From an uncultured Candidatus Peribacteria bacterium (GTDB lineage: Bacteria > Patescibacteriota > Gracilibacteria > Peribacterales > Peribacteraceae), in NCBI GenBank assembly GCA_964534205.1, contig CAZHQF010000004.1:109436-173435 (forward strand): 64,000 nucleotides of DNA. Reading direction: 5' to 3'. Below are positions 4,024-40,700 of this stretch, piece by piece; positions within the stretch are counted from its first letter, which is position 1; each line of letters opens with the position of its first letter. The notes under the pieces are model-generated. The model made no database searches and was not told where the DNA came from. It was given only the letters and a program-made list of their open reading frames with translations. The position numbers and the translations under genes are program-made.

Positions 4024-4095
4024 TCTTGAACTGCTCAAGATATACTTATACCAAGATCGATTATTATTTAGTGTCCAACGAACTATAATTGCTTA

Positions 4096-4542: not shown

Positions 4543-4586
4543 TCATTTAAAGTATAACACAAAAATTGGAAATTTCATAATTAAAA

Positions 4587-5111: not shown

Positions 5112-5179
5112 CTAGAGGAGTTGGAAACCCAGATAAATTTCCGATTACAAAATAACCGACGGTATGCTATAATAATCTG

Positions 5180-24000: not shown

Positions 24001-27000
24001 GTGTTGCCGGTGTTGGTGCCGGAGCGCTTCTTGATGGCGAGCGCGCCGGTCATGGTGTCTCCGGAAACGTTGACGTACCGGGAATCGAAGGATGCGCGCA
24101 GTGATCCGGTGGAAGTGAAGAGCACCCCGTAATCCTCCAGTGAGCTGACATCTCCGCATTCCACGCTTCCGGCATCGTCGGTGATCAGCAGCGGGCAACT
24201 GACAAAGACGGAATCCAGGAGGCGGAATCCGTTCTCGATCGCAAGGTTGTAGATGTAAGCCCCGCTGTTGAGGTACGCGTTACCGTCCACCGCGAGCACT
24301 CCGCTGGAGGCGAGTCTGTTGTTGGCGAAGAGTGTGGAACCGGAGACGGTGGTGAATTCGAGGAGGGAGCCGGTGATGGTGGTGTTCAGGGTGAAGACGT
24401 TGCTCGTGAGGGTGAGGCCGCGGCCGGCGACGTACGACGTTCCGCCATCATCCGTGCCACAGACGATCTGACCGTTGGAAGTTTCCAGAGAGGTGCAGTT
24501 TGCGTAGTTGTTGAAGTACACGGCACCGTCGACGAGGAGGGAGCCGGAGGCGCGGAGCTGATCCTGGGCATGGAGAACACGGCCGGAAGCGGTGCCGATG
24601 ATCTCGAGCTTGAGGTTGGAATCAACGGTGCTGGAGCCGAGGTTGAGGTTTCCGAGGAGGTAGCTGTTGCCGGCCATCACCGTGAGTGCTGCACCGGAGA
24701 GGGTGCCGCGGGTGGTGAGGTTTCCTTTGATGAGACCAGTGGTATCGACGACGAGTGAGCCGGAGCTCCGTAGCTGGCTGCGGGCATACACCGTCATGCC
24801 GGAGAGGGTCTGGAAGTTGACGAGCGAACCGGTGATCGTGGTGTTGAGACGGAAGCCCGTGCCGGTGAGCGTCAGACCCTGCCCTGCCCCGTACTGCGAA
24901 TTGGAGTCGGTGCCGCAGACGAGGTCGCCGTTGGAGTTGGTATCGAGCGTGTTGCAGTTGGTGAGAGCGGTCAGACGGACGGTACCCTGCAGGAAGGAAT
25001 TGCCTTCAACGGCGAGGACACCGGAGGAAGCAAGGCGGTTGTTTGCGGTGACTGTAGAGCCGGAGATGGTCTGGAATGTGAGGGAGGAGCCGGTGATGGT
25101 GGCGTTGAGTCTGAATGACGTTCCGTTGAGCGTCAGGCCCTGGGCGGCGGTGTAGGTGGTGTTGTCGTCGGTGCCGCAGACGAGATCGCCGTCCGCGTCG
25201 GTCTCAAGCGCGGTGCAGCCGAAGAAACTGGCGTTGAGGAGCTTGATCGGGGCGCTGCTGCCTGCATTGATCGTGCCACCGAAGAAGGAGTTGCCTTCGA
25301 CCGCAAGAACTCCGGAGGAGGTGAGACGGTCAGTGGCAGAGACGAGGGAGCCGGAGACAGTGGTGAATTCCAGGAGCGAACCGGTAATTGTCGTGTTGAG
25401 CGTAAAGACACCGGCGGTGAGCGTGAGTCCCCTGCCGGCGAAGTACGACGTTCCGCCATCGTCCGTGCCACAGACAATCTGACCGTTGGAGGTTTCCAGA
25501 GCGGTGCAGTTTGCGTAGTTGTTGAAGTACACGGCACCGTCCACGAGGAGAGAGCCGGAGGAACGGAGCTGATCCTGTACATGAACGATGCGGCCGGAAG
25601 CCGTACCGAGAACCTCGAGGAGAACACCGGCATCGACTGTGACAGTGCCGTTACCGGAGCGGATCGCGAGAGCTCCGGTCATCGTGTCGCCGGAGACGTT
25701 CACGAAACGGTTATCGAAGTAGGTCGTGAGCGAGCCGGTACCGAACGATGCGCCGCCTGCACCCGTATCATCCGTGCCGCAGACAATCTGGCCGTTGGAG
25801 GTCTCAAGCGCGGTACAGTTCTGATAGTTATTGAGGTACACAACGCCGTCCACAAGCAACGAGCCCGACGAGCGGAGACTGTCTTGGGCGTGCAGAACGC
25901 GTCCGGAAGCCGTTCCAAGAACATTCAGACCGCCATCGAGCTGCACGGATCCATCCACCTCCAGTGATCCTTCGATGAAGAGATCGTCGTCGGAATCGAT
26001 GACATCGGTGTGGCTTGCGCTGCCCGAATCGGAAATGATGTTGTAGGCCCGGGCTCCGACACCTCCCACATTATAGGTACCAACGACTGCGATACCGGAA
26101 GCGAAGTTCACGGAGTTGTCGTAGTAACTGATGCCATCGACCTCGATGGTGCCGGCGATGAAGAGATCATCATCGGAATCGAGGCCGCCGCCGCCCGCGT
26201 GGGAGGCCGCGCCGGAATCACTGATGATGTTGTAGACCTGCGAGGCGGCGCCGCCGACATTGAAAGCACCTTCGACCGTGAGGGATCCGGACGACAGAAG
26301 ATTCGTACGCGCAAAGACGCTGGAACCGGAAACCGTCGTGAAATTCACCAGGGAACCGGTGATTGCGCCATTGAGACGGAATGCCGTGCCGTTGAGCGTG
26401 AGGCCCTGAGCCGCCGAGTATGTGGTGCCCTCGTCGGTGCCGCAGACCAGATTGCCGCTGGGATCGGTATCGAGCGAATTACAGTTCGTAAGAGCGGCGA
26501 GGCGGACCGTCCCCTGGAGATACGAGGTGCCTTCCACGGCGAGAACGCCGGAGGACGTGAGGCGGTTGGCGGCGGAGATCGTGGAACCGGAGACTGTCTG
26601 GAACGAGACGAGAGAACCCGTGAGCGTGCCGTTGAGGCGGAAGACGTTTCCGGTGAGACCGATCCCCTGGCCCGCAACGTACGTGGAACCTTCGTCCGTG
26701 CCGCAGCTGAGGTTGCCGTTGGCATCGGTATCGAGCGTGTTGCAGTTCTTGAGTGTGGAGACGGTGAGTGTTGCACCGGAGAGGTTGCCGCGGGTGGTAA
26801 GGTTGCCCTTGAAGAGACCGGTCGTCTGAACGATGAGCGAACCGGAAGAGCGCAGGGTGTTGTTTGCAAACAACGTGGTACCGGACACGGTCTGGAAATT
26901 CACAAGCGAACCGGAAATCGAGGAGGCGAGGCGGAAGCTGTTGGACGTGAGCACGAGGCCCTGGGCGGCGGTGTACGTGGTGCCTTCGTCCGTGCCGCAG

Positions 27001-28574
27001 ACCAGGTCACCGCTGGAGTTGGTATCCAGTGTGTTGCAGTTGGTGAGCGACGTGATGCGGACGGTTCCCTGGAGGAAGGAATTGCCTTCAACGGCGAGGA
27101 CACCGGAGGAGGTGAGGCGGCTGTTTGCGGTGATCGTGGAGCCGGAGATCGTCTGGAAGGTGAGAGAGGAACCGGTGAGCGTCGTGTTCAGCGTGATGAC
27201 GGTGCCGTTGAGGGTCAGGCCGCGGCCCACGCTGTACGTGGTGTCGGAGTCTGAACCGCAGACGAGGTCGCCATCAGCATCGGTCTCAAGGGCGGTGCAG
27301 CCGAAGAAATCGGAATGGAGAAGCTTGAGACCGGCGGCCAGCGTGGTGTTGCCGGTGACGGCAAGGGTGCCGCCGAGGAAGGAGTTGCCTTCGACCGCGA
27401 GTGAACCGGAGAGCGACGTGGCGCCTTCCACGAGGAGCACACCCGAGGACCGGAGAACCGTCTGCGCGTGAACGACGGAACCGGAGACCGTCGTGAATTC
27501 CAGGAGGGAGCCGGTGATCGTGGAGTTGAGCGTGAACGTGTTCGTGATCGTGTTGAGCGTGAGACCCTGGCCGGCGCGGTAGCTGGAGCCGGCACCGCCC
27601 TCGTCCGTGCCGCAGACAAAGTTGCCGTCGGCATCGGTATCGATCGTGTTGCAGTTCTTGAGTCCGGAGATCGTGAGCGTGGCACCGCTGAGGTTGCCGT
27701 GGACGACTGCATCGCCGGCGACGATCAGATCACCGCTGCTCGTGAGGAGCTGCTCGGCGTGGAGGACGGATCCGGAGATCGTGCCCGTGACATTGAGGCC
27801 GAGTCCGTCGACGAGGATGTTGAGGAGCCCCGTCATCGTGTCGCCGGGAACGTTCACATAGCGGCCGTCGGCATCACTCTGGGAGAGACCGCCCGTACCG
27901 CCCGTGCCACCGGAATTGCCGCTGTCACCGCCGCCGCCTCCGCCGCCGTAGCTGCGCTGCACCGGACCCGACTCACCGCCGGAACTGCCGCCGACCGGGA
28001 ACGGGCGGCGGCCGAGACCGGGACTGTAGACTCCGGGGAAATCTTTCCAGACGGCTTTGCCGTTCTCGATCATCAGAATCTGGCCTTCCCTGCCGTCATC
28101 CGGGAAGCGCAGCGCGGAGACGCGCTGGCCGAATTCGCTGCGGGTCTGCACGGTGGGGACGGCTGTGCGGAGGACCGGAGCACCGAACCACGTGGGCTCG
28201 GGAATCGCGGGGACCGCAACTGCCGCAGCGGCCGGAGACGTGCGGGGCGAAGGCGAACCGAACCACGTGGGCTCGGGAATGCTCTCCGTGCGCGGGCTCG
28301 CCTGCGTCACGCGTACGCGCGTAGAAGAAAACACCGATGCCTGCTGCGTGGAAACGACAGCGTTCGTTGCGGATGTCTGTGCGGGACGCGGAGACGGCGC
28401 AAGCACGCCGAACGTGGCACGCAGGAACACGTCCCCGATCACCGATGCCCTGGACGCGTGTCCCGAACCGGTCAGCAGCAGCAACGCGAGAGCCACCACG
28501 CCCGCGGCAAACACGCGGCGATGCACGCTGCGTTTCCGTCCTGCCGTGTTGGTGTTGGAAAGTGGCTCCGGCAT
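15063..28574 (-). CDS. Giant (4503 aa) anchored surface fibre protein: concatenated tail-fibre-like modules, 7-repeat LVIVD region and a C-terminal beta-helix module
   Basis: Uninterrupted 13.5 kb ORF. N-terminal signal/anchor VFAAGVVALALLLLTG. Recurrent Y(V/L)NVSGDTMTG, (R/N)VGIGT..P, IIGTASGR.LHAQD.LRSSG, YDLGN.SNRWN.LYA and NC..L.T...G...CGTD units. YVQGRYAYV repeats. See findings. Confidence 0.9.
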   Translation of the reverse strand: MPEPLSNTNTAGRKRSVHRRVFAAGVVALALLLLTGSGHASRASVIGDVFLRATFGVLAPSPRPAQTSATNAVVSTQQASVFSSTRVRVTQASPRTESIPEPTWFGSPSPRTSPAAAAVAVPAIPEPTWFGAPVLRTAVPTVQTRSEFGQRVSALRFPDDGREGQILMIENGKAVWKDFPGVYSPGLGRRPFPVGGSSGGESGPVQRSYGGGGGGGDSGNSGGTGGTGGLSQSDADGRYVNVPGDTMTGLLNILVDGLGLNVTGTISGSVLHAEQLLTSSGDLIVAGDAVVHGNLSGATLTISGLKNCNTIDTDADGNFVCGTDEGGAGSSYRAGQGLTLNTITNTFTLNSTITGSLLEFTTVSGSVVHAQTVLRSSGVLLVEGATSLSGSLAVEGNSFLGGTLAVTGNTTLAAGLKLLHSDFFGCTALETDADGDLVCGSDSDTTYSVGRGLTLNGTVITLNTTLTGSSLTFQTISGSTITANSRLTSSGVLAVEGNSFLQGTVRITSLTNCNTLDTNSSGDLVCGTDEGTTYTAAQGLVLTSNSFRLASSISGSLVNFQTVSGTTLFANNTLRSSGSLIVQTTGLFKGNLTTRGNLSGATLTVSTLKNCNTLDTDANGNLSCGTDEGSTYVAGQGIGLTGNVFRLNGTLTGSLVSFQTVSGSTISAANRLTSSGVLAVEGTSYLQGTVRLAALTNCNSLDTDPSGNLVCGTDEGTTYSAAQGLTLNGTAFRLNGAITGSLVNFTTVSGSSVFARTNLLSSGSLTVEGAFNVGGAASQVYNIISDSGAASHAGGGGLDSDDDLFIAGTIEVDGISYYDNSVNFASGIAVVGTYNVGGVGARAYNIISDSGSASHTDVIDSDDDLFIEGSLEVDGSVQLDGGLNVLGTASGRVLHAQDSLRSSGSLLVDGVVYLNNYQNCTALETSNGQIVCGTDDTGAGGASFGTGSLTTYFDNRFVNVSGDTMTGALAIRSGNGTVTVDAGVLLEVLGTASGRIVHVQDQLRSSGSLLVDGAVYFNNYANCTALETSNGQIVCGTDDGGTSYFAGRGLTLTAGVFTLNTTITGSLLEFTTVSGSLVSATDRLTSSGVLAVEGNSFFGGTINAGSSAPIKLLNASFFGCTALETDADGDLVCGTDDNTTYTAAQGLTLNGTSFRLNATITGSSLTFQTISGSTVTANNRLASSGVLAVEGNSFLQGTVRLTALTNCNTLDTNSNGDLVCGTDSNSQYGAGQGLTLTGTGFRLNTTITGSLVNFQTLSGMTVYARSQLRSSGSLVVDTTGLIKGNLTTRGTLSGAALTVMAGNSYLLGNLNLGSSTVDSNLKLEIIGTASGRVLHAQDQLRASGSLLVDGAVYFNNYANCTSLETSNGQIVCGTDDGGTSYVAGRGLTLTSNVFTLNTTITGSLLEFTTVSGSTLFANNRLASSGVLAVDGNAYLNSGAYIYNLAIENGFRLLDSVFVSCPLLITDDAGSVECGDVSSLEDYGVLFTSTGSLRASFDSRYVNVSGDTMTGALAIKKRSGTNTGNTLVVDTNGLVYDATNKRVGIGTAMPDDGLLYVSTQNQLPGTYDSGLTGVYIDADMPEEVTTTNFGPTDYGLYVNSDSQRTLSVDEGSLHTMVQAGISVSASHVGDATTSGVGSAVNRKVYGIDATAVMTMAGRTGNGIDLVYGGYFGAAMAEDLNSPGSAAYGIYATATGAVAWSGYFDDADVFIQEGLEVIGTASGRTIHAQNQLRSSGSLLVDGVVYLNNYANCTALETVNGLVTCGTDNGSSYSAGQGLTLTGTGFRLNTTITGSLVNFQTLSGMTVYARSQLRSSGSLVVDTTGLIKGNLTTRGTLSGAALTVMAGNSYLLGNLNLGSSTVDSNLKLEIIGTASGRILHAQDRLEASGALVVRSTTTNPVLYTDVTNGRVGIGTAAPTSDLTIASTGIPKLTLHGTNGHTSYIDFNRNNGNNSWRIEASGTFVLYNSTNAYSTTVNLMDLGTSEIVFNNDAGNTDFRIEGDTKSNLFFLDASTDNIGINTNAPGSKLALSGAMIINSTGTTGMTADTGLALEIIGTASGRVLHAQDVLRASGSLLVDGAVYFNNYANCTSLETVNGLVTCGTDDGTTYLAGRGLTVSSNVFTLNTTITGSLLEFTTVSGATVHAQDLLRSSGALAVEGNSFLQGNISLGDSTSDNIAANGLFNTSLLPAANVTYDLGNTSNRWNGLYANTGNFSGNVNMNGNVGLGDGAADNVSFNGLANTSILLAANNSYDLGNSSNRWATLYAVNGNFATNVTATNISARNTLSGSALTIMAGNSSFLGPLNLGSTNYDSNIKLEIIGMASGRVLHAQDRLASSGTLVVQSGVTFKSLTNCSALQTDSAGALSCGSAGGLSQTTADSRYVNVSGDTMTGGLIIRSGNGTAFLDSGILFEVLGVASGRILHAQDILRSSGSLIVDGSAYFNGNVSTNFIPASNATYDLGNTSLRWNNLYANTGNFSGNVNMNGNVGLGDATSDNIAANGLFNTSLLPAANVTYDLGNTSNRWNGLYAGTGNFSGNLFANGNVSLGDAAGDNISFNGSANTSILAAANNSYALGNSTNRWSNIFSVDGNFSNNISVNNLYANTNVSARNTLSGGALTIMSGNSSFLGPLNLGSTAIDTNVKLEIIGMASGRVLHAQDRLASSGTLVVQSTGLVKGNLTTRGTLSGAALTVMAGNSYLLGSVNIGSSTVDTNLKLEVIGTASGRVIHAQDKLESSGALVIRTTRPYPLLYTDTTNYRLGLGTASPGSRLALSGAMIINANGNLGSSAADTGVSLEIIGMASGRVLHAQDRLASSGTLVVQSTGLVKGNLTTRGTLSGAALTVMAGNSYLLGSVNIGSSTVDTNLKLEIIGTASGRVIHAQDQLRASGSLLVDGAVYFNNYANCTALETVNGLITCGTDDGSSYFAGRGLTLTSNVFTLNTTITGSLLEFTTVSGAIVHAQDQLRSSGTLIVRSTTRLQSGAYITGHVVPTADATYDLGSNTNRWRDLYISGTSVHMGTSVSEGVMGYNSSDGFHFTGAGGAEVRGTASGRTVHAQDSLRSSGSLIVDGLAYLNNYANCTALETANGVLTCGTDGGGAASIGDAVGSGTQGSVLFLGPSGVLAQDNTNFFYNDSLNLLKLGGTFVVGGSTTSNAGYNLISNNDSSVASHTASDQINTSDDLYIGGALEVDGYAFFDTGVRLGHTFIVGGATTSASYNKITTNDSSVATNLDSTDDLYISGSLEVDSAAFFDNSLTFSAITSCSFLATDVSGNVYCNTSSAGGDFWALTGNSGINASAQFVGTTDGTHLAFRTNNTERMRILDMGMVGINTSAPNATLDVNGNLHVGGVSNLVPYSFFATNGSSMAGHGLDGYSDVFIEQSLEVDGIAFFDSTVQISGLTNCSVLATDSSGNIFCNTSSLGGGGITEGSLAYSGGDAGSGDSSAGSSASTLALSYPSDVYVQGNYAYVTDLYAHTLNAFDVSDPADPVQIFSISTGLFTPEAVYVQGRYAYVTNQDTSILTIMDVSNPARITSVGSVTLAGLLRDVYVQGRYAYVVSNNDTLNVIDVSNPKNPIRVGVVSTNLADPYAIYVQGRYAYVADVEANAMYVFDVSDPAAPTYVSSGTNFTSLPTGIYVQGRYAYIAAQGNDGVSIYDISNPAYPVHISTTTSNMSDPESVYVQGEYMYVTNLGGTLGVYDVSNPASVSFVDSESTSLSVPRALFVLGQHAYLTDTSNSKLHVLNAFGTYIHQLGVGGFEAGTGLFRENLQVFNDTDIRGALTVGQGMNVVGGASITASGSLSYALRVNANSGALLLTTGTTDSAVNAFRIMSNVTSANNPVFSIRADGTVYSDGSYNGTGADYAEWFRTADTDLVPGDAVCIDVTRENSVRKCRGDGDPDVIGIVSTNPSFVGNVMSGADGVPVPGTVLVGLIGQVPAKAVIASGSVIRPGDSLTAAALSGYVRKAMAGESTVGVALTGLTGNTGTTGTIQVLISRRNQSLTTEAVSERVLQTVQDLKIQDELELSLQQAVAQFSASGTLMQPISEEVSRQVSALNVQSIEERLAALNARIDSLSGGTVTVAGDSALNALAARISQLETSLGGSSAGTGTTSADLVASTLNVEDTLIVGSNARIAGDLELDGTLRVSSLFIPGIVTIDGALTASSLDADTLTVSSGATIGGVLTIQGSLELASGATLGFASGSTVDFSTLVVRNALHVLGPVTIEGLAQFLGDVQVHGELQVSDRQAGMAKIPMSGTSVTITFDPPTTVQPIVTASPDVPVLYAVSNATMTGFTIRLAAPATEDITFSWHALGAFTFDPSALTSSSSSSSSVGIAFPVDASGVPLSSNAVWNACIRNQVTLDADGNPLSCSRYHEDYVWTHPDLSIEFTWNTQTTPPLLVLPDGYSRVEETMSEEITEPAPEETPLEEPVTEPPSETPSDTPPPEETPSDVPADLPPAEEPVLEPEASPSVEPSGDEPVEEPALPEETPSATDEPVEAAPPAPQESVPVTP
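20611..21568. repeat. About 0.96 kb block nearly identical to 34744-35701 in the second giant gene (offset 14133)
   Basis: Read directly. The same DNA runs from tcctgggcgtggaggacacggccggaggccatgccgatgatctcgagtttgacg onward. The antisense ORFs 20723..21115 and 34856..35248 translate identically. I saw only isolated mismatches, for example near 21514. Confidence 0.85.
22965..23243. repeat. About 279 bp repeat, no mismatch seen by eye, with 24591-24869 inside the 4503-aa gene (offset 1626)
   Basis: Identical text from ggtgccgatgatctcgagcttgaggttggaatcaacgg to cccgtgccggtgag in both places. The protein segment ...LSGMTVYARSQLRSSGSLVVDTTGLIKGNLTTRGTLSGAALTVMAGNSYLLGNLNLGSSTVDSNLKLEIIGTASGR occurs twice. 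Confidence 0.85.
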
Positions 28575-28766: not shown

Positions 28767-31700
28767 TCATTCCTGTCCACTTTCGGGCACCGGCTCGCTC
28801 GATGCAGGCGCAGCTTCCGGCTGCGCTGAACCCTCTCCTGCATCGGAGGTTGTCACCGGCTCGGCGGGAGCCTCCGATATCTCCTCGGGTTCTTCTGCGG
28901 GAGTGTCCGTCGTCGCAGTGTCTTCCGTCGGCAATTCCTCAACAGGTGTCTCCGTAGCAGGCTCTTCCGTTGTCACGGGAACCTCATCCGCCGGAGCATC
29001 ATCAGACGGAACGGACAGCCCGTCGGTGATCACAGGAATCTGCACGGTGGCTGCGTAGCCGTCTGGCAAAAGCAGGAGCGGCGGTGTGGTCTGCGTGTTC
29101 CACGTGAAGGTGATCTCAAGATCCGGATGCGTCCACACATAGTCGGTGTGGTAGCGGCTGCACGAGAGCGGATTTCCGTCGGTATCGAGCGTGACGAGAT
29201 TTCTGATACAGGAATTCCAGACGTTATTGCTCGAGAGCGGCACACCGAAGGCATCCACCGGGAAGGCAATCGAGTTTTCCGCATCTGTAACGGCAGATCC
29301 GCTGGCACTCATCTGCGGGTCGTTGGCGAGGATCGCGGTCCAGGCAAAGTCATAATTCTCGGCAGCGGGATTTTTGAGTTCGATCGTGAAGCCCGTGGAC
29401 GTCGCCGGCGTGATCCTCCACGGACCTTCCACGAAGCTCAGCGGCGTGACATTCACGACCGGCGCGAGCGTGAGATCGTGCGTGAAACGCACGGTGACCA
29501 TGGTCTGACCGGTACCGATGCGGGCGAAGCCCGCGTGGCGGTTGCTGACGCGGAGTTCACCGGAAATTTCGACATCACCGAGGAACTGTGCGAGACCATC
29601 GATGGTGATGGGCCCAAGCACGTGGAGCGCGTTTTTGACGACCAGGTTGCCGAAGTCCACGGTGGAACCGGAGGCGAAGTTGAGCAGAGCGCCGGATGCC
29701 AGATCGAGTGAGCCCTGGATCAGGAGCGTGCCGCCGATCGTGGCACCGGAGGAGACGGAGAGGTGATCCGTATCAACGGACGACGCGGTGAGTGCGCCAT
29801 CGATCGTCACGATGCCCGGGATGAAGAGGCTCTGCACCTGCAGCACTCCGTCGAGCGCAAGATCACCGGCGATGCGTGCATCCCCGCCGACCATGAGCGT
29901 GTCCTCCACGTTGAGCGTGGAGGCGGTGAGATCGGAAACGCGTGCCGCAGAACCGGAGAGCGGGTTTTCTACCCGCGGATCGGAAGCAATAATTTGGCTT
30001 CCTGTAGCGGTTTCCTGACTGTCCACAAGAGCCCCCGAGAGCGCGGCTACCTGCTCGCTCAACGTGGTCAGCCTGGAAGACAGGTCTGCAATGTTGAGTG
30101 CGGCGACCTGGCGGTTCACCTCTTCACTGATCGGGAGCATCAGCGTGCCCGAGGCGGAGAAGTTCTCCACGGCCTCCTTGAGCGAGAGTTCAATCTCGTC
30201 CTCGATGCGCAGATCCTTCACCGCCTGCAACACGCGGTCCGTGACGGCTTCCGTGGTGAGCGAACCGTTGCGGCGCGCCACAAGGACACTGATGAGCCCC
30301 GTGGTTCCCTCGGGACCATCGAGGCCTTCAAGAGCCACACCGACCGTCGGCTCCCCTGCCTCGGCACGGCGCGCGTAGCCCGGTGTGAGAGCGGGGGTGA
30401 GCGAATCTCCCGGACGGATCACCGCACCGGATTCCACAATGACTTTGGCCGGGATCTGACCGATGAGACCGACGAGCGTGTATCCCGGCACCGGCAGACC
30501 TTCCTTGAACATCGAGAACCAGCCGCCACCCGTCACGTCGTTACCCACGAAGGACGGGTTGGTGGTGACGATACCCATCACATTCGGGTCGGCCGACCCG
30601 CGGCAGCGCTGGACGGTGCTGCTCTTGGTGGCATCGATACAGACCAATTCGCCGCTCTTGAGGTCGCTGTCCGAGGCTTTGAACCACTCGGCGTAGTCGG
30701 CACCGGGGGCGACATGCGTGGTGTCGGCAGCCGGGTAGAAGTAGAACTTGGTGAGTTCCAGGTGATAGTTTGAGCTGGAGGCGTTCTTGGTGTTCACGAC
30801 ACCCTTGAGGATGTGGTAACCATCACCCGTGATCGTGACGGTATCTGTTTTCACCACGTTGTAGGTGGTGGACGCCGTGTACCAGTCTTGTCCGGTTTCC
30901 ACGAGAACCCCGTCGATGTACCAGTCCACTTTGGCGGAGGCGTTGGTTGTCGCTCCGAGAGCGGCGAACGTGTAGCTACCGGCCCGGAGATAGAAACCGT
31001 TCGTAAACGCATTGCCGTCGGCAGGGGTTGTATGGCGGTTAAAGCTGGCATACTGCTGGCTGCTGTCCGTGCGTGATGTCATTGCCGATCCTGCCACGGA
31101 GATACTTTCCTGATGCCACATCACGGCACGGTCCGGGTACGTGGTGCCCGTTCCGGTGCCCACCTGCACCATCCTCCAGCCTTTCTTGCCCGTACTGTCA
31201 CCGACAAGGTTACCCATATTGACGTAGGCAAAGCCGCGCTTGTTATCGAGGTAGAGCGAGCCCGTGCTGGCCTGCACAAGGTTGTACGGCGTGCCGGAAC
31301 CGGAGTAGATGCCGGCGTTGCGGTTGTACGTGTTGTCGTTCAGACGGATGAACTCGCTGCGGTTCGCGCGGCTGATGACGGCGCCGGAGGAGAGGCGGAG
31401 CACCTGGCCGGACATGGTGCCGACCACCTCGAGCTTCACATTGGAATCGATCGACGTGGCGCCGAGAACGAGGTTATCGCTGGTGTCGTTCAGGAGCACA
31501 AAGGCACCGGCATCGCTGAAGGGCGAAGCTCCCGCCGTGTTATCGATCTGCATCACCGTCATCGTCGGGCGGGCTTCCGTGGTGGTATCCGTGCTGGCAC
31601 CGCCATCGATGTAGACGTACATTTCCAGGTAATCTCCGGCAACAAGATCGAATGTGTCGACCACTGTGGCAGTCACCTGATAGCCGGAACTGCGAGCGAG

Positions 31701-34700
31701 GTCGTAACGTACGAGTGATCCGTTCTTGTAGATGTACGAGACGATGGCTCCGTTGGCAAGGCCTGTGGCATCGGACCACGATGCCGTCACGAGGTACTTG
31801 CCGGACTTCTTGATATCGAAGCGATCGTTGGTACTGTAATCGGCAATGCTGCCGATGTCGTACGCCTCGCCATCGAAGGCAATTTTGGTGACGGTAGCAG
31901 TCGTAATACTCTGTGCTGCAGCCCTGTGCATCCTGGCCATGTGCACTGAGCCTGAGCCCGTTGCAAGAGAGGACCAGACCGTTCCCCCATTTTCATTCTT
32001 CCAGATGGTTCCGGTGTCGGTGGCGAAGTAGAGCGAGGCGCGGTTGCCGGAGACACTACCGTTCGGATTACCAGTGCCGGTTTTGAGCATGACGGAGCCG
32101 CCGTTGGCGCTGTCTTCGAGGAGGAGGTTTCCTGAGGCAGAGACCCCGCGGGAGAGTGTGAGCGCGCCGCTCAAGTTCAGGATTCCGCGGGAGACGCGTG
32201 TGAGCGCCGTATCGTACACGCCACCGGAACCGAACAGGATGTGTGCGGCCCCCTTCGTCGCCAGGCGCAGCGCACCCGTGCCCGTGGTACTCGGTCCGGC
32301 GAGGATGCTGATATCCAGACCGCTCTTCTGCGCCGAGAGATCACGGAGGAAGAACAGTGCACCGGAGCCGGTACCCCCGGAAGCCGGGTTGACGATCTTG
32401 AACGAGTTATCGGAAGACGTGAGCTGGATCATGGCATCGCCGCCGTCAAGGTCGTTGAGATATGCGTCGCGGAGCGTGGTACCAGTGGCGGCACCGCCGA
32501 GGAAGCTCTGGTCGGTTGTCGGCGAGAACCACATCTTTGTCAGCGCGATCGCGTAGCTGCTGGAACTGGCGTGCTTGCCATTCACCGTGCCCTTAAGCAC
32601 GTGGTAACCGCTGGTAGGAATCGTAACCGTCGCTGTCTTCACGGTGTTATAGCCAAGCGAGGTGTACCAGTCCTGACCAGTGACGATTGCGACACCGTCG
32701 ACCGTCCAGTCGATGATACCGTTGTTGGTATTGGTGATACCGAGGACGGAGAATGTGTATGTGCCCGCCTTGAGCATGAATCCTTGCGTGAAGGCATCTC
32801 CGTTGGCGGGTGTCGCCTGCTGGGTAAACGTGTAATAGATCTGGTTCGCATTGGTGAAGTTGGTGAGTGCGGTACCCGCCGTCTTCGTGCTCTCGCTGTG
32901 CCACATCGTGGCGCGGCTCGGGACTACGTTGCCGGACGCGGAACCGCCGCTTCCTTCGGCATCCGTGCCACAAGTGAGCAGACCATTGACGGTTTCAAGG
33001 GCGGTACAGTTGGCGTAGTTGTTGAAGTACGCGTTGCCGTCGACAATGAGGGAACCGGAGGAACGGAGGATGTCCTGGGCGTGGAGGACGCGGCCGGAGG
33101 CGGTGCCGATCACTTCCAGTTTCACGCCGGTATCGATGGTGATGGCGCCGATGGCGAGACCGTCGGAAGTATCATTGAGGTAAGCGAAGGAACCACCATC
33201 AATGAACGGCGACGCACCGGCGCCATCCATCTGTACCACAGAGAGTCGCGGACGAAGATCAGAGCTGGCATCTGTGTTCACCGCATTCGAGCTATAGACG
33301 TACATTTCAATATAATCGCCTACCACAAGATCAAGGACTTCGGTTGCTACTGGCAACGTGGAAGATCCTCCGCCGCCAGCCATCACGCGAGAGCCATTTT
33401 TGTAAATCGACGTCATGGTTGTCGCACCGGGGTTCGGACTGTACCAGTACGCCGTCACGAGATATTTGCCGGCTTTCTTAATATCAATACGGCTGTTGGT
33501 GGTATTTGCCATGCCACCCACATCAATTTCTGTAGTGTTAAGGCTGATTTTTGTATGCGCCGCAGCCCCAATACTTTGGGCAGTGGAACGAGTCATCTTT
33601 GCCATCAGTACTCCCGATCCCGACATGAGTTCCACCCACTGCGTACCGTTGTTGTTGTTCTTCCAGATCTTGCCGGTATCGGTGGCGAAGTAGAGAGAGG
33701 CCCTGCCGCCGCGGATCACCCCGTTCGGGTCGCCGGTGCCGCTGAAGAAGCCGACGGTAGTGTTGTTCGTGGAGTCCTTGAGTGTCAGGAAGCTGGAATT
33801 GGGAGCCTGACGGATCTGCAGCGCACCGCTCAGGGAAAGGACGTTGGAGCCCGTGCGGGACAGGGACACGTTATAGGTGCTTCCCGTGCCGAACAGGATG
33901 TGTGCCGCGCCCTTGGTGGCAAGACGGAGTGCGCCGCTGCTGTTATTGAGGATGCCGGCCCTGATGCTGATATCGAGCCCGCTCTTCTGACTGGAGAGAT
34001 CGCGGATGAAGAACAGCGCACCGGAGCCCGTGCCGTTGCTGGACGGGTTCACGATCTTGAACGAGTTGTCGGAGGACGTGAGCTGGATCATGGCATCGCC
34101 GCCGTCAAGGTCGTTGAGATATGCGTCGCGGAGCGTGGTACCAGTGGCGGCACCGCCGAGGAAGCTTTGATCGGTTGCAGGCGAGAACCACATTTTTGTG
34201 AGAACCATGCAGTACGATGAGGCGCTCGCGTTCTTGCCGTTCACCACACCCTTGAGCACGTGGTAACCGCTGCTGCTGACCGTGACGGAGGCAGTCTTCG
34301 GCGTATTGAAGTTTGCCGCTGCGGCGTACCAGTCCTGCTGCGACACGGCGAGCACTCCGTCGATGTACCAATCGATGATACCGCGATTGGAACTGGGAAT
34401 GCCAAGCACGGAGAAGGTGTACGTTCCCGCCTTGAGGAGGAACCCGTTGGTGAACGAGTCGGAGTTCGTACATGTGCTCTGGAACATAGCCTGTTGATAG
34501 GCTTGCGAACCGACGTTGCTGGAATCCTGACTGAGTGATCCTCCGGTGATAACCTTGCTCTCGTCATGCCACATCGTGGCGCGGCTGGGCACCACGTTGC
34601 CGGAAGCCGAACCGCCGCCGCTTCCTTCGGCGTCCGTGCCACAAGTGAGCAGACCGTTGACGGTTTCAAGGGCGGTACAGTTGGCGTAGTTGTTGAAGTA

Positions 34701-37700
34701 CACAAGACCGTCGGCAATGAGCGAGCCCGAGGAGCGAAGGATGTCCTGGGCGTGGAGGACACGGCCGGAGGCCATGCCGATGATCTCGAGTTTGACGTTG
34801 GTGTCGATGGCGGTGGACCCGAGGTTGAGGGGACCCAGGAAGGAGCTGTTGCCGCTCATGATGGTGAGCGCACCGCCGGAGAGCGTGTTGCGGGCGGAGA
34901 CGTTGGTATTGGCGTACAGGTTGTTGACGGAGATGTTATTGGAGAAGTTGCCGTCGACGCTAAAGATGTTCGACCAGCGGTTGGTGGAGTTGCCGAGTGC
35001 GTAGCTGTTGTTGGCGGCGGCGAGGATGCTGGTATTGGCCGAACCGTTGAAGGAGATGTTGTCACCGGCGGCGTCACCGAGGGAGACGTTGCCGTTGGCA
35101 AAGAGGTTGCCGGAGAAGTTGCCGGTACCGGCATAGAGGCCGTTCCAGCGGTTGGAGGTGTTGCCCAGGTCGTAGGTGACGTTGGCGGCGGGCAGGAGGC
35201 TCGTGTTGAACAGACCGTTGGCGGCAATGTTATCGGAGGTGGCGTCACCGAGACCCACGTTGCCGTTCATGTTCACGTTGCCGGAGAAGTTGCCGGTGTT
35301 GGCGTAGAGGTTGTTCCAGCGGAGAGACGTGTTACCCAGGTCATACGTGGCATTGGAGGCGGGGATGAAGTTGGTGCTCACGTTGCCGTTGAAGTATGCG
35401 CTGCCGTCGACGATGAGGGAGCCGGAGGAACGGAGGATGTCCTGGGCGTGGAGGATGCGGCCGGAGGCGACGCCGAGGACTTCAAAGAGGATGCCGGAAT
35501 CGAGGAAGGCGGTGCCGTTGCCGGAGCGGATGATGAGACCGCCGGTCATGGTGTCACCGGAGACGTTCACGTACCTGCTGTCTGCGGTGGTCTGGGAGAG
35601 GCCGCCGGCCGAGCCGCAGGAGAGGGCACCGGCGGAATCGGTCTGGAGAGCGGAGCAGTTGGTGAGGGACTTGAAGGTGACGCCGCTCTGGACCACGAGG
35701 GTTCCCGAAGAAGCGAGGCGGTCCTGGGCGTGGAGGACACGGCCGGAGGCCATGCCGATGATCTCGAGACGGACGTTACTGTCGATGCTGGTGTTGCCGA
35801 TATTCACGAAGCCGGCAGTGACGTTCTGGGAGAAGTTGCCGTTGACGGAGAAGATGTCTGCCAAACGGTTACTGGTGTTGGCGAGGTTGTATGAGTTGTT
35901 GGCAGCGAGGAGGATGCTCGTGTTCACGAGACCGTTGAAGGAGACGTTGTCGGCTGCTCCGTCACCGAGGGCGACGTTGCCGTTGGCAAAGAGGTTGCCG
36001 GAGAAGTTGCCGGTGTTGGCGTACAGAACATTCCAACGGAGGGAGCTGGCGCCAAGGTCATACGTGACGTTCAAGCTGGGAGTGACGTGGCCGGAGAAGT
36101 TTCCGGAGGCGGCAGTGATGTTGCCCGAGAAGTTACCCACGTTGGCGAAAAGGTTGTTCCAGCGGTTACTGGAGTTGCCAAGGTCGTATGTGGCATTCTG
36201 TGAGGGAACGAAGCTGGTGTTGATGAGGCCGTTGAAGTACGCGTTGCCGTCGACGATGAGGGAACCGGAGGAACGGAGGATGTCCTGGGCGTGGAGGATG
36301 CGACCGGAAGCGGTACCGATGATTTCGAGCTTCGCGTCCCCTGCCAGTGCCGCACCGATGGCCACATTGCCTGTCTGGGCGATGGAGAAGAAATCCTCGG
36401 AACCGATGCCGCCATCGGCGGAGATCACGAGCGTGTCCGAGGCGCTACCGTGGTTCGCGATGGTCCACTTGTTCGTGCCCGCTTCCTTGAGCGTGAATCC
36501 GGCATAGCCGTTTGCGCCAGAATCCAAATAGACAAATGCATTGCTTGTATCGGATTCCACGACTATGTCGGTAGAGGCGGAACCGTTGTACAGATGGAGC
36601 TGGGCGAAGGGATTGGTGGTGCCGATACCCACGTAGTTATCGGCGCTGTCGACGTACAGAGTGGAACCATCGAGGTACGTATCCCCTTCCACAAGGAGGG
36701 TGCCGGAGGAGCGGAGGATGTCCTGGGCGTGGAGGATGCGGCCGGAGGCGGTGCCGATGACTTCAAGCTTTGCATTTGCGACATCGCCGAACAGGTTGTC
36801 TCCCATAGTGATATTGCCGCTGGAGTCCACCTGCATTTTGATCTCACTTCCCCTGTAAAAGTAGATCGGGGCGGCCTCCTGATTGCCAATGGAAAGTGAT
36901 GTGCCATTGACTTCCAGGAACGAACCGTCTGTGGACGCCGTTCCCGTCCAGGCGTTGGTCAAGAGGAGACGCGCGGGAGTGGTGATAGATGAAGAGTGAA
37001 TTTGTACTGGGGCGGCGGGCTCTGCAATACCCACGCCAACACGCTTATTGGAAGCGTCGTACACGAAGCCCGCTGTATCTATAACAAGAATGTTTCCTGT
37101 GGAAGTCCCTGCATATTTCTTGACTACAAGGGCACCGGAGGAAAGGAGAGAGTTTCTGGCAAAGACGGTGGCACCGGAAACGGTGGTGAACTCGAGGAGA
37201 GAACCGGAGATGGTGGTGTTGAGGGCGAGAGCGCCGTTGAGGGTCCTGAGACCCTGGCCGACGGAGATGGAACCCGTGTCATCCGTACCACAGACAATCT
37301 GACCGTTGGAGGTTTCCAGAGCGGTGCAGTTGGCGTAGTTGTTTAGGTACACAGCACCGTCGACGAGGAGGGAGCCACTGGAACGGAGGATGTCCTGCGC
37401 GTGGAGAATGCGACCGGAGGCGGTGCCGATCACCTCAAGTTTGGTGTCCGCACTGAATGCGCCCATGGAGATGTTGCCGTCACCGCCAACACGGAGCATG
37501 GGGCTGGTGCCAGCGCCGTTCATCACAATCAGGCCGTAATCGGAAGCATTGGTTCCTCCGTAGATGCGCACACCGGAACCGAGCGTGGAATAGACATCGA
37601 GACCCAGGTATCCGGCGGTGGTAGTAATGATCTCAAGACCGCTCTTATTGGTGGGAGCGGTGATACTCATGGCAAAATTGCTGTTGGTAGCCCCGATACC

Positions 37701-37763
37701 CACCACGTCATTTGTACTGTCGACGATGAGCGTTGTGCCATCGATGTTCGCGGAACCCTCCAC
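28767..37763 (-). CDS. C-terminal ~3000 aa of a giant surface fibre gene (no signal peptide of its own; continues the 37784..45916 ORF after a frameshift)
   Basis: The ORF-track start is a GTG inside the repeat consensus (..SSGSLIVEGSANIDG). Same module types as the 4503-aa protein, plus tandem jelly-roll-like and C1q/TNF-like domains. The C-terminal ~650 aa are paralogous to the 4503-aa protein. Confidence 0.85.
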   Translation of the reverse strand: MEGSANIDGTTLIVDSTNDVVGIGATNSNFAMSITAPTNKSGLEIITTTAGYLGLDVYSTLGSGVRIYGGTNASDYGLIVMNGAGTSPMLRVGGDGNISMGAFSADTKLEVIGTASGRILHAQDILRSSGSLLVDGAVYLNNYANCTALETSNGQIVCGTDDTGSISVGQGLRTLNGALALNTTISGSLLEFTTVSGATVFARNSLLSSGALVVKKYAGTSTGNILVIDTAGFVYDASNKRVGVGIAEPAAPVQIHSSSITTPARLLLTNAWTGTASTDGSFLEVNGTSLSIGNQEAAPIYFYRGSEIKMQVDSSGNITMGDNLFGDVANAKLEVIGTASGRILHAQDILRSSGTLLVEGDTYLDGSTLYVDSADNYVGIGTTNPFAQLHLYNGSASTDIVVESDTSNAFVYLDSGANGYAGFTLKEAGTNKWTIANHGSASDTLVISADGGIGSEDFFSIAQTGNVAIGAALAGDAKLEIIGTASGRILHAQDILRSSGSLIVDGNAYFNGLINTSFVPSQNATYDLGNSSNRWNNLFANVGNFSGNITAASGNFSGHVTPSLNVTYDLGASSLRWNVLYANTGNFSGNLFANGNVALGDGAADNVSFNGLVNTSILLAANNSYNLANTSNRLADIFSVNGNFSQNVTAGFVNIGNTSIDSNVRLEIIGMASGRVLHAQDRLASSGTLVVQSGVTFKSLTNCSALQTDSAGALSCGSAGGLSQTTADSRYVNVSGDTMTGGLIIRSGNGTAFLDSGILFEVLGVASGRILHAQDILRSSGSLIVDGSAYFNGNVSTNFIPASNATYDLGNTSLRWNNLYANTGNFSGNVNMNGNVGLGDATSDNIAANGLFNTSLLPAANVTYDLGNTSNRWNGLYAGTGNFSGNLFANGNVSLGDAAGDNISFNGSANTSILAAANNSYALGNSTNRWSNIFSVDGNFSNNISVNNLYANTNVSARNTLSGGALTIMSGNSSFLGPLNLGSTAIDTNVKLEIIGMASGRVLHAQDILRSSGSLIADGLVYFNNYANCTALETVNGLLTCGTDAEGSGGGSASGNVVPSRATMWHDESKVITGGSLSQDSSNVGSQAYQQAMFQSTCTNSDSFTNGFLLKAGTYTFSVLGIPSSNRGIIDWYIDGVLAVSQQDWYAAAANFNTPKTASVTVSSSGYHVLKGVVNGKNASASSYCMVLTKMWFSPATDQSFLGGAATGTTLRDAYLNDLDGGDAMIQLTSSDNSFKIVNPSSNGTGSGALFFIRDLSSQKSGLDISIRAGILNNSSGALRLATKGAAHILFGTGSTYNVSLSRTGSNVLSLSGALQIRQAPNSSFLTLKDSTNNTTVGFFSGTGDPNGVIRGGRASLYFATDTGKIWKNNNNGTQWVELMSGSGVLMAKMTRSTAQSIGAAAHTKISLNTTEIDVGGMANTTNSRIDIKKAGKYLVTAYWYSPNPGATTMTSIYKNGSRVMAGGGGSSTLPVATEVLDLVVGDYIEMYVYSSNAVNTDASSDLRPRLSVVQMDGAGASPFIDGGSFAYLNDTSDGLAIGAITIDTGVKLEVIGTASGRVLHAQDILRSSGSLIVDGNAYFNNYANCTALETVNGLLTCGTDAEGSGGSASGNVVPSRATMWHSESTKTAGTALTNFTNANQIYYTFTQQATPANGDAFTQGFMLKAGTYTFSVLGITNTNNGIIDWTVDGVAIVTGQDWYTSLGYNTVKTATVTIPTSGYHVLKGTVNGKHASSSSYAIALTKMWFSPTTDQSFLGGAATGTTLRDAYLNDLDGGDAMIQLTSSDNSFKIVNPASGGTGSGALFFLRDLSAQKSGLDISILAGPSTTGTGALRLATKGAAHILFGSGGVYDTALTRVSRGILNLSGALTLSRGVSASGNLLLEDSANGGSVMLKTGTGNPNGSVSGNRASLYFATDTGTIWKNENGGTVWSSLATGSGSVHMARMHRAAAQSITTATVTKIAFDGEAYDIGSIADYSTNDRFDIKKSGKYLVTASWSDATGLANGAIVSYIYKNGSLVRYDLARSSGYQVTATVVDTFDLVAGDYLEMYVYIDGGASTDTTTEARPTMTVMQIDNTAGASPFSDAGAFVLLNDTSDNLVLGATSIDSNVKLEVVGTMSGQVLRLSSGAVISRANRSEFIRLNDNTYNRNAGIYSGSGTPYNLVQASTGSLYLDNKRGFAYVNMGNLVGDSTGKKGWRMVQVGTGTGTTYPDRAVMWHQESISVAGSAMTSRTDSSQQYASFNRHTTPADGNAFTNGFYLRAGSYTFAALGATTNASAKVDWYIDGVLVETGQDWYTASTTYNVVKTDTVTITGDGYHILKGVVNTKNASSSNYHLELTKFYFYPAADTTHVAPGADYAEWFKASDSDLKSGELVCIDATKSSTVQRCRGSADPNVMGIVTTNPSFVGNDVTGGGWFSMFKEGLPVPGYTLVGLIGQIPAKVIVESGAVIRPGDSLTPALTPGYARRAEAGEPTVGVALEGLDGPEGTTGLISVLVARRNGSLTTEAVTDRVLQAVKDLRIEDEIELSLKEAVENFSASGTLMLPISEEVNRQVAALNIADLSSRLTTLSEQVAALSGALVDSQETATGSQIIASDPRVENPLSGSAARVSDLTASTLNVEDTLMVGGDARIAGDLALDGVLQVQSLFIPGIVTIDGALTASSVDTDHLSVSSGATIGGTLLIQGSLDLASGALLNFASGSTVDFGNLVVKNALHVLGPITIDGLAQFLGDVEISGELRVSNRHAGFARIGTGQTMVTVRFTHDLTLAPVVNVTPLSFVEGPWRITPATSTGFTIELKNPAAENYDFAWTAILANDPQMSASGSAVTDAENSIAFPVDAFGVPLSSNNVWNSCIRNLVTLDTDGNPLSCSRYHTDYVWTHPDLEITFTWNTQTTPPLLLLPDGYAATVQIPVITDGLSVPSDDAPADEVPVTTEEPATETPVEELPTEDTATTDTPAEEPEEISEAPAEPVTTSDAGEGSAQPEAAPASSEPVPESGQE

Positions 37764-37783
37764 GATGAGGGAACCCGAAGATC

Positions 37784-40700
37784 TCAGCTGGTCCTGAGCG
37801 TGGACCGTTGCACCGCTGACAGTCGTGAACTCAAGGAGTGAACCGGTGATGGTGGAGCTGAGACGGAAGCCCGTGCGGTGAGAGTAAGACCCTGACCTGC
37901 GGCATACTGGGTACCTGCGGTGTTGCTGGAACAGACGAGGTTGCCGGAGCTGTCGGTGGTCAGGCGGCCGCAGTTGTTGAAGCCGCCGGAGGTGAGGCGG
38001 AGGCCGGACTGCAGATATGTCTGTCCTTCGACGGAGAGTGAGCCGGATGAGAGCAGCTGGCTGCGGGCGAAGAGCGTGGAGCCCGAGACCGTCGTGAACT
38101 TAAGCAGGGAGCCGCTGATGGTGGAGCTGAGGCGGAAGCCCGTGCCGGTGAGAGTAAGACCCTGGCCGGCGGAGTAGCTCTTGCCGACGCTCGTGGCAGC
38201 GGAGCAGACGAGGTTGCCGGAAGAGTCGGTGGTGAGGACGCCGCAGTTGTTGAAACCCGAAACGATGCGAATACCCGAATTGGCCTGCAGCATGTCGTCG
38301 CCAGCAAAGAAGCCGTCGCCGTAGATGCGCCCGTCGCCATCGACTCCCAGTTCAGTTATGCCGTCGTAGCGAACATCAAGAACATACGTAGCTGGATCAT
38401 CAGCAGCCATATCGAGCACGAGTGCTGTCGTGGCATCCGAATTGTAAATGGTCATCGCAACATCGTTGTCTGAGACAACACTTACCTGACCTTGCAGATA
38501 GGTTTCCCCCTCCACGGACAAGGTTCCACTGGAGGTCAGTCTGCTCTTCGCGGTCACTGTTGAACCGGAAACCGTCTGGAAGCGAACGAGCGAGCCGGTG
38601 ATGGTGGAGTTCAGCTTGAAGCCCGTGCCGGTGAGAGTAAGACCCTGGCCGGCGGAGTAGCTCTTGCCGACGCTCGTGGCAGCGGAGCAGACGAGGTTGC
38701 CGGAAGAGTCGGTGGTGAGGACGCCGCAGTTGTTGAAGCCGCCCGAAGCGAGACGGAGGCCGCCCTGGAGGAAGGTGTTGCCGTCGACGGCGAGGACGCC
38801 GGAGGAGGTCAGACGGTTCGTAGCAGAGACCGTCGCACCGGAGACGGTTGTGAACTCAAGGAGGGAACCCGTGATCGTGGCGTTCAGTCTGAATGACGTA
38901 CCGTTCAAGGTCAGACCCTGAGCGGCGGTATACGTGGTGTTATCGTCGGTGTCACAGACCACGTCTCCATCGGCATCGGTGGAAAGTGCCGTGCAGTTGT
39001 TGAATCCACCGGAGGCGAGCTTGAGGCCGGAAGAGAGAGTCGTGTTGCCGGTGACCGCGACAGTCCCCTGCAGGAAGGAATTGCCTTCCACTGCGAGGAT
39101 GCCGGAGGAGGTCAGACGGTTCGTTGCGGAAACCGTTGCACCGGAGACAGTGGAAAATTCGAGGAGAGAGCCGGTGATGGTGGTGTTCAGCGTGAAGACG
39201 TTGCCCGTGAGTCCAAGACCGCGACCTGCGGCGTACGTGGTGTTGTCATCAGTGCCACAGACCACATCACCATCAGCATCGGTCTCGAGGGTGGAGCAGT
39301 TGTTAAAGCCACCAGAGGAAAGCTTGAGGCCGTTCTGCAGGTAGGTGTTCTGCATGACGGCAAGCGTGCCGGAGACGGAGAGGTTGCCCTTCAGGATAGA
39401 GTTGTTCTCCACGACGAGAGCGCCGGAGGAACGCAGATAGTTGGCAGCGAAGACCTGGGAACCGGAGACGGTCTGGAAACGGACAAGGGAGCCGGTGATC
39501 GTGGCATTGAGACGGAAGCTGGTGCCGTTGAGGGTCAGGCCCTGGGCTGCGGTATAGGTTGTGTTGTCGTCGGTGTCACACGTGATGTTTCCAGAGGAAT
39601 CCGTGGAGAGTGCCGTGCAGGAATTGAATCCGCCGGAAGCGAGACGCAGACCAGACTGCAGAATCGAATTGCCCTCGACGAGGAGCGTGCCGGAGCTGCG
39701 CAACTGATCCTGCGCGTGCACAGTCGCGCCAGAGACCGTGACAAATTCGAGGAGGGAGCCGGTGATCGTCGCGTTGAGACGGAAGCTCGTGCCGTTCAGA
39801 GTCAGGCCCTGTGCAGCGGTGTACGTCGTGTTGTCATCCGTGTCACAGACGATGTCACCGGACGAGTTGGTGGAGAGAGCTGTGCAGGAGTTGAAGCCGC
39901 CGGACGCGAGCCTGAGGCCGCCCTGGAGGAAGGCGTTGCCATCGACGGCGAGAACGCCGGAGGAAGTGAGACGGTTTGCTGCACTGACGAGAGAACCCGA
40001 GACCGTCTGGAAATTCACGACGGAACCGGTGAGGGTTGTGTTGAGAGTGATGACTGTGCCGTTGAGTGTGAGGCCGCGACCGACGGAGTACGTGGTGTTG
40101 TCATCGGTGTCACACGTCACGTTGCCGGAGGAATCCGTGGCAAGAGCGGTGCAACCGTTGAAGCCGCCGGAAGCGAGGCGCAGACCAGAGTTCAGATAGG
40201 CGGTGCCGTCGATGGCCAGAGCGCCGCTGGACTGGAGCGTGTTCTGGGCATGGACGGTAGCGCCGGAGACGAGAGCGAATTCGAGGGTGGAACCGGTGAT
40301 GTTTGCGGAGAGACGGAAGCCGGTGCCCGTGAGGGTGAGGCCCTGCGCAGCGGAGTACTGCGTATTTGTATCTGCATCCGTACCGCACACGAGGTCACCG
40401 TTAGAGTTGGTATCGAGCGTGTTGCAGTTGGTGAGAGCGGTCAGACGTACCGTGCCCTGCAGGAACGCATTGCCGTCGACTGCGAGGACTCCGGAAGACG
40501 TCAGACGATCGGTAGCTGACACTGTTGCACCACTGACCGTAATGAATTCCACAAGCGATCCCGTGATCGTGGCATTCAGCCTGAAGCTCGTACCGTTCAA
40601 GGTCAGACCCTGAGCGGCGGTATACGTGGTGTTATCGTCGGTATCACAGACCACGTCACCATCGGCATCGGTGGAGAGTGCCGTGCAGTTGTTGAAGCCG

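Follow-up and report, generated by a model that had tools for sequence, protein, structure and literature searches.

CBM-like and C1q/TNF-like jelly rolls alternate in a tandem repeat of a giant fibre-like protein from a Candidatus Peribacteria genome

How do bacteria of the candidate phyla radiation (CPR), with genomes of about 1 Mb, find and hold their partner cells? This question is touched by a 64,000-nucleotide (nt) stretch of contig CAZHQF010000004.1 (hereafter the window) from an uncultured Candidatus Peribacteria bacterium, whose metagenome-assembled genome (MAG) measures 1.32 Mb in 8 contigs and is 99% complete. Peregrinibacteria stand out for their wealth of huge, uncharacterised proteins (PMC11573180). 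The window holds three giant open reading frames (ORFs), head to tail on the minus strand: 37784-45916 (2710 amino acids, aa), 28767-37763 (2998 aa) and 15063-28574 (4503 aa). Inside the 2998-aa ORF lies a tandem repeat that carries five copies of two small domains, blocks A and B. We propose that these domains are ligand-binding knobs on a giant surface fibre that is anchored at its N terminus and built from phage-tail-fibre-type modules; such a fibre would probably be trimeric and multivalent, and we consider this the probable reading of the locus.

Two jelly-roll folds in a diverged tandem repeat

Unit limits were set by self-BLASTP of the 2998-aa translation in 120-aa windows and by MAFFT alignment, and domains were defined with hidden Markov models (HMMs). 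The region comprises 2.5 diverged tandem units in the order L-A-M1-M2-B, L-A-M1-M2-B and L-M2-A, followed by a C-terminal module (CT); L is a linker of ~65 aa, and A, M1, M2 and B span ~140, ~113, ~75 and ~135 aa, respectively. Unit 1 (U1; aa 979-1535, 33159-34829) and unit 2 (U2; aa 1536-2097, 31473-33158) align from end to end over ~555 aa each, with 61% overall identity (44-81% by segment) and unit-to-unit segment E-values down to 1e-64. Unit 3 (U3; aa 2098-2348, 30720-31472) is partial and re-ordered, consisting of a short L, M2 and A. At the DNA level, the corresponding repeat families are spaced by 1659-1671 nt at 83-86% identity. All of these features, and those given below for this ORF, lie on the minus strand. 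A first-pass annotation made from the letters alone had described two full tandem units and a third, partial one inside the second giant gene, and this description holds, as do its coordinates for the two blocks, which agree with the HMM-defined domains to within a few codons. It had counted two block types per unit; A and B are indeed present, but a full unit proves to be linker L and then the four domains A, M1, M2 and B. The preamble that it placed before each unit, '...NCTALET..CGTDAEGSGG.SASGNVVPSRATMWH', is found before the first two A copies, whereas the third is preceded by an extra M2 and by '...GTGTGTTYPDRAVMWH'.

Block A occurs at aa 1055-1199 (34167-34601), aa 1611-1752 (32508-32933) and aa 2206-2348 (30720-31148), the last copy standing directly before a chaperone-like module. 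A profile of 27 block A sequences matched the xanthan-binding module MiXBM in the Protein Data Bank (PDB; 7ehg, E 6.3e-7) and residues 814-900 of Paenibacillus xanthan lyase (6f2p, E 1.2e-5); a single-sequence search of the unit against the PDB gave no match. The M2-A segment of U3 was modelled with a mean predicted local distance difference test score (pLDDT) of 81.6, mostly above 90 in A and 55-84 in M2. With Foldseek, the A model superposes on MiXBM with a target-based template-modelling score (TMt) of 0.80 and a root-mean-square deviation (rmsd) of 2.6 Å, followed by carbohydrate-binding modules (CBMs) of the CBM36, CBM35 and CBM6 families (TMt 0.65-0.73). The jelly-roll-like fold suspected for this block is thereby confirmed: block A is a CBM6/35/36-type jelly roll, closest to MiXBM. 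The Pfam family CBM_35_2 scores 29.3 bits on the whole 2998-aa protein against a cut-off of 23. Scanned singly, just 3 of the 27 family members reach it, which marks A as a distinct and so far undescribed family of the CBM6/35/36 fold, with motifs of its own (an R-A-T-M-W-H-D-E start, QDWY and GYH.LKG.VNGKN.SS).

Block B occurs at aa 1385-1513 (33225-33611) and aa 1940-2075 (31539-31946). Its profile, built from 30 aligned B segments taken from the matches of a U1/U2 profile search, matched C1QL1 (E 2.5e-11) and C1q (E 5e-10) in the PDB, and further C1QL2/3, caprin-2, collagen X NC1, cerebellin and TNFSF18; BclA scored E 0.06. The AlphaFold 2 (AF2) model of the second copy, a monomer prediction on the 30-sequence alignment, is all beta with a pLDDT of 94.1 and a predicted TM score (pTM) of 0.88. 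Foldseek aligned this model with probability 1.00 to caprin-2, C1QL1/3, C1q, collagen X NC1 and BclA at TM scores of 0.67-0.80 (0.67-0.70 for BclA), and among its 396 PDB matches at E<=1e-3 the best 50 were almost all globular C1q (gC1q), TNF-ligand or BclA domains. Block B is thus confirmed as a gC1q/TNF-like (BclA_C-like) jelly roll, the fold that the first-pass annotation had suspected in it. The analogy drawn there with the C-terminal domain of Bacillus BclA is apt, since 24 of the 30 family members, scanned singly, match Pfam BclA_C (best 2e-9); five match C1q. Against PHROGs, the second copy found the unnamed family phrog_25122 alone.

Compared codon by codon, U1 and U2 form a mosaic. 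The linker and the A/M1 junction share 94-98% of their nucleotides, with 2-4 synonymous differences per 30 codons, and the same identity extends over the first ~35 codons of M1; identity falls to 43-55% over the N-terminal third of A and the greater part of B. Over whole domains, A copies are 47-61% identical and the two B copies 43%, with indels. One run of 92 nt is exact (32416-32507 and 34075-34166, offset 1659) in a neighbourhood that is otherwise 45-70% identical, apparently a sign of recent intragenic gene conversion. The identical segments reported earlier at 34081-34200 and 32421-32540 reflect this run, but the pair is 1 nt out of register and as written agrees at 25 of 120 positions. 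The near-identical junctions suggest that ongoing intragenic recombination may homogenise the scaffolds while the knob cores diverge.

Three-frame reading of 37600-38100 places a 1-nt frameshift near 37871 that splits the 2998-aa ORF from the upstream 2710-aa ORF, which past the shift reads on into it. A decaying or mis-assembled sequence, either a pseudogene created by this frameshift or tandem units that are strain variants wrongly joined, would be in keeping with the MAG origin of the sequence and with the near-identical linker repeats flanking the units, which could mislead an assembler. We regard this explanation as very improbable. The repeat-bearing ORF stays open for 9 kb without a stop, and the divergence of the B copies, with their indels, lies far beyond strain variation. 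The differing domain order of U3 likewise speaks against mis-assembly, as does an independently assembled Peribacteria MAG in which a 3674-aa open frame carries three tandem A-bearing units (L-M2-A-M1) at spacings of 1659 and 1773 nt. That frame also has a terminal M1-M2-A-CT1, where CT1 is the first part of the C-terminal module discussed below, and no B.

Assembly duplication, the artefact named in the first-pass annotation, is ruled out by copy divergence (U1 and U2 differ at 39% of residues), by the order of U3 and by the parallel repeat in the other MAG. As a separate observation, the 3674-aa frame (L107, G061:C10) contains RCC1-like repeats, identified by eye as WGYN..GQ.G.GNTT, at aa ~2306-2782, and long runs of an 'SSTGSL...F' repeat of ~12 aa between its knob units.

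A fibre-like setting for the knobs

Read across the frameshift, the 2998-aa ORF is the 3' part of a fibre gene of ~5700 codons. It has no signal of its own; the upstream 2710-aa ORF has an N-terminal hydrophobic (transmembrane) segment, as does the 4503-aa protein. From this segment we infer that the fibre is anchored at its N terminus, with the repeat region toward its distal end. In both giants, the hydrophobic segment is followed by an IPEPTWFG motif and a Gly-rich stretch (45032-45210 and 28026-28277).

At the other end of the protein, seven residues past the third A copy, the motif GADYAEWF opens CT1 (aa 2353-2520, 30204-30707), a weak relative of Peptidase_G2. CT1 is the first part of a C-terminal module of ~650 aa that is 60-64% identical to the C terminus encoded by the 4503-aa gene (15063-17021). 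Six of nine CT1 homologues match Pfam Peptidase_G2 ('IMC autoproteolytic cleavage domain'; best 4.7e-6). The sole PDB match of CT1, the chaperone domain D4 of the tailspike Dpo31 (28nb), is not significant (E 0.81) and shares the G(S/A)DYAE(Y/W)F start. In phage tailspikes and tail fibres that end in an intramolecular chaperone (Peptidase_G2, PF11962), as in the giant, a variable distal domain leads directly into a conserved C-terminal module with a G(A/S)DYAE(W/Y)F start. The likeness of CT1 to these chaperones is weak; the module of the window protein has in addition a stretch that resembles a coiled coil, another that resembles a beta-helix, and an acidic tail, and its cleavage is putative. 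Taken together, the C-terminal likeness suggests that both giants may be processed like phage tailspikes.

The position directly upstream of CT1 would then be the tip. A scan of one genome per species returned 137 CT1 relatives. Among the best 80, nearly all are titled Candidatus Peribacteria, Peribacteraceae, Peribacterales or Peregrinibacteria, and a few Patescibacteria group, Gracilibacteria or 'bacterium'; the window's relatives are thereby placed in this lineage. The domain directly before CT1 in these 80 is A in three, B in one and L in nine; in the other 67, the ~500 aa upstream match none of the A, B, M1, M2 or L models. The slot before CT1 is thus highly variable, a pattern typical of distal, specificity-determining fibre domains, and the 67 unrecognised regions form a large reservoir of putative tip domains. 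In 14 loci CT1 is present twice, as a rule with 30-380 aa between the copies (L021, L029, L040, L045 and L055 are examples).

The wider distribution of the domains places them in phage proteins as well. Among 1.84 billion representative proteins, a U1+U2 profile picked out 11,906 at E<=1e-3, and architectures were counted in the best 150. In these, A is the last domain of ~95 short proteins of 134-1003 aa, and otherwise forms A-A tandems of ~300 aa or stands in M2-A-CT1 order in giants; B is found either in giants, as M2-B modules, or in arrays of 3-10 copies. Of the 150, only the window's protein has the combination A-M1-M2-B. On 10 viral contigs from IMG/VR, fibre-like ORFs of 180-1050 aa reach their stop codon 0-10 residues past A; on one of these contigs, the next gene encodes an endolysin. 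Two compact phage-like contigs add further cases: one has, beside a 3200-aa gene, a B-B-A protein of 909 aa that matches Pfam PTL_trimer (L108, 10001-12730), and the other has a protein of ten tandem C1q-like B domains, with a 1324-aa gene after it (L109, 8001-13160). None of these A- or B-bearing phage-context proteins is named in its source. These results show that A and B are large unannotated families used by uncultivated phages in fibre-like proteins. Confident folds are hereby assigned to two large unnamed families, found together with the unit's middle part in ~12,000 representative proteins, and the families take their place in a phage-fibre-like grammar of adaptor, knob and chaperone; both are candidate new family definitions for annotators.

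A knob of CBM-like fold need not recognise a receptor. Enzymes carry the nearest solved relatives of A (MiXBM, xanthan lyase and CBM6/35/36) as polysaccharide-binding modules, and the genes downstream of the giants include one for a glycosyltransferase and one for a PMT_2 mannosyltransferase. The knobs might accordingly bind non-receptor polysaccharide, such as exopolymers of the cell itself or of its environment, to tether the cell to a matrix or biofilm or to capture nutrients, with A acting as CBMs do in glycoside hydrolases. We judge this unlikely. Pfam and NCBIfam scans found no catalytic domain in the 2998-aa protein (the NCBIfam scan gave no match at all), so that A has no catalytic module attached; A is terminal in the viral fibre-like proteins, a receptor-recognition setting; and host-range determinants typically show this layout, a variable slot ahead of a chaperone-like module.

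Known fibres and the proposed binding function

The closest studied analogue of the giant fibre is the mosaic adhesive trimer (MAT) of Bdellovibrio bacteriovorus, a fibre whose TNF-like tips bind N-acetylglucosamine (GlcNAc; PMC10769870). The comparison is one of architecture, not of sequence. The MAT and the proposed giant fibre are phage-like fibres of bacteria, built for adhesion, in which the shaft or scaffold is conserved and the distal domain can be exchanged; TNF/C1q-like folds are found at some MAT tips, and some MATs end in an intramolecular chaperone. They differ in scale and layout. A MAT has ~1000 aa, a single terminal tip and an S74-type chaperone, whereas the window protein has ~3000 aa (~5700 with the upstream ORF), five knobs of which four are internal, an alternation of CBM-like and C1q-like folds, and a chaperone-like module of G2 type; Pfam S74 has no match in it.

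Each knob also has its own counterparts. The BclA C-terminal domain (PF18573; 1wck, 2z5w) and metazoan gC1q share the jelly roll of B and are related to it by profile homology. There the domain is C-terminal after a collagen-like Gly-X-Y stalk, a layout not seen here: the 2998-aa translation contains no Gly-X-Y repeats, and B is internal and repeated, with M2 before it and linker L after it. An internal C1q-like knob within a longer trimeric protein has a parallel in the central spike of Staphylococcus phage phi812 (9eul; query-based score, TMq, 0.79, profile E 2e-4), which has a single knob in a baseplate spike, whereas B is a repeated module of a cellular fibre. A shares the beta-jelly-roll of MiXBM and of CBM6/35/36 modules but differs in being enzyme-free, in its motifs and in standing at fibre termini in phage-like proteins; its ligand binding is predicted. 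The kind of system is already known, that of phage-like or MAT-like adhesive fibres with C1q/TNF-like and CBM-like binding domains. New relative to known adhesive fibres are the multiple, mostly internal knobs and the alternation of two folds in a giant CPR protein.

The internal position of B, together with the existence of tandem arrays of up to 10 B domains, raises a second alternative, that the knobs are mainly structural. gC1q heads act as trimerisation nuclei in C1q, collagen VIII/X and BclA. By analogy, the gC1q-like heads would nucleate and register trimer folding and the jelly rolls would stiffen or space the fibre, with no specific ligand; the invariant residues of both families, which lie largely in strands, would suit such a role. 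These family-invariant positions are G60, Y62, G68, D82, W92, Y93, G112 and H114 for A (numbered as in its second copy) and G51, Y53, N77 and D107 for B. This account seems improbable to us. It predicts scaffolds more diverged than knobs, and the reverse is seen, with knob cores the most diverged parts of the unit at 25-50% identity and scaffolds 94-98% identical; moreover, A is terminal in phage proteins and the TNF-like tips of MATs bind sugar.

We therefore favour ligand-binding knobs on an anchored fibre. In this scheme, the fibre would be a homotrimer, since trimers are the working form of gC1q/TNF heads and of G2-type chaperones. The module starting at GADYAEWF would act as an intramolecular chaperone and then be cut off, leaving the third A copy as the distal tip, as where A ends phage proteins. 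The five diverged knobs could then provide multivalent and multi-specific binding to glycans or proteins on the surface of another cell; this other cell would presumably be the small-genome bacterium's host. The first-pass annotation had suggested receptor-binding or lectin-like knobs along the fibre or at its end; the context fits this suggestion, in the phage fibre tips and in the variable slot before the chaperone-like module, and binding itself stays a prediction.

Several points weigh against this reading. Binding, trimer formation and cleavage are deduced from sequence and models, and the upstream frameshift, if real, would halt expression of the 2998-aa part. The window's own copies fall below the gathering thresholds of the families invoked: CT1 scores 15 bits against 25 for Peptidase_G2 (E 0.016), and the B copies 17-18 bits against 38 for BclA_C (E 3.5e-3 and 6.4e-3). 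Among phage receptor-binding proteins with a solved structure or a name, none matched A: tblastn against 50,697 cultured-phage records found nothing, a BFVD fold search with the M2-A model returned loose, high-rmsd beta-sandwich matches alone, and PHROGs gave for the A-bearing short proteins nothing but one weak 'tail protein' match outside A. gC1q heads have their N and C termini at the same face, so the path of the chain beyond an internal B knob would pose a structural problem. Predicted loops carry only a modest excess of the differences between copies (identity in loops versus strands, 33% versus 44% for A and 31% versus 46% for B). Finally, A is found in none of 60 relatives sampled, and A, M1 and B are absent from the two genomes of the same genus; the knobs are therefore accessory.

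The 60 relatives include four genomes from the same family that have M2-B, and the knobs are thus accessory and mobile. Within the source genome, A, M1 and B are confined to the 2998-aa gene. The exact 2998-aa protein is not on record in other assemblies.

A broader version of the binding hypothesis holds that CPR bacteria (here Peribacteria) and uncultivated phages share one pool of receptor-binding knobs, A and B, that the giant is a multi-specific host-recognition organelle, and that G2-like autocleavage exposes its distal knob. We advance this version only tentatively and consider it doubtful as a whole; if it is true, the knobs could serve as probes for the hosts of Peribacteria. In either version, the locus supplies five small (~140-aa) expressible domains, usable on glycan arrays or as fluorescent probes for a ligand or host.

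Linker, scaffold modules and neighbouring genes

Linker L recurs at least seven times in the 2998-aa protein, with the consensus KLE.IG.ASGR.LHAQD.L.SSG.L ... C......G.L.CG, and is without a solved relative; its copies at aa 985-1049 (34617-34811), which reads KLEIIG.ASGRVLHAQDILRSSGSL...NCTALET..C, and aa 1542-1606 (32946-33140) head U1 and U2. M1 (aa 1199-1312, 33828-34169; aa 1752-1865, 32169-32510) is a fibre-like segment without a database match. M2 is a small beta module of ~75 aa with the motif 'G.G.P.G....GSLY....G..Y......W', present at aa 1311-1384 (33612-33833), aa 1864-1939 (31947-32174) and aa 2125-2205 (31149-31391). In nearly all giant-protein relatives, M2 stands ahead of an A or B knob. 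The M2 profile matches the designed propeller proteins Pizza and Cake, a significance that sums weak per-blade scores, each with E >2, so that a propeller-blade-like beta meander is a hint and not a finding.

Elsewhere in the window, the GC content falls to 0.37-0.42 at 4001-8000, compared with ~0.60 in the rest. In this low-GC segment lie genes for a SET-domain protein and a histidine kinase, together with the 3' end of the gene for a 1458-aa FG-GAP protein.

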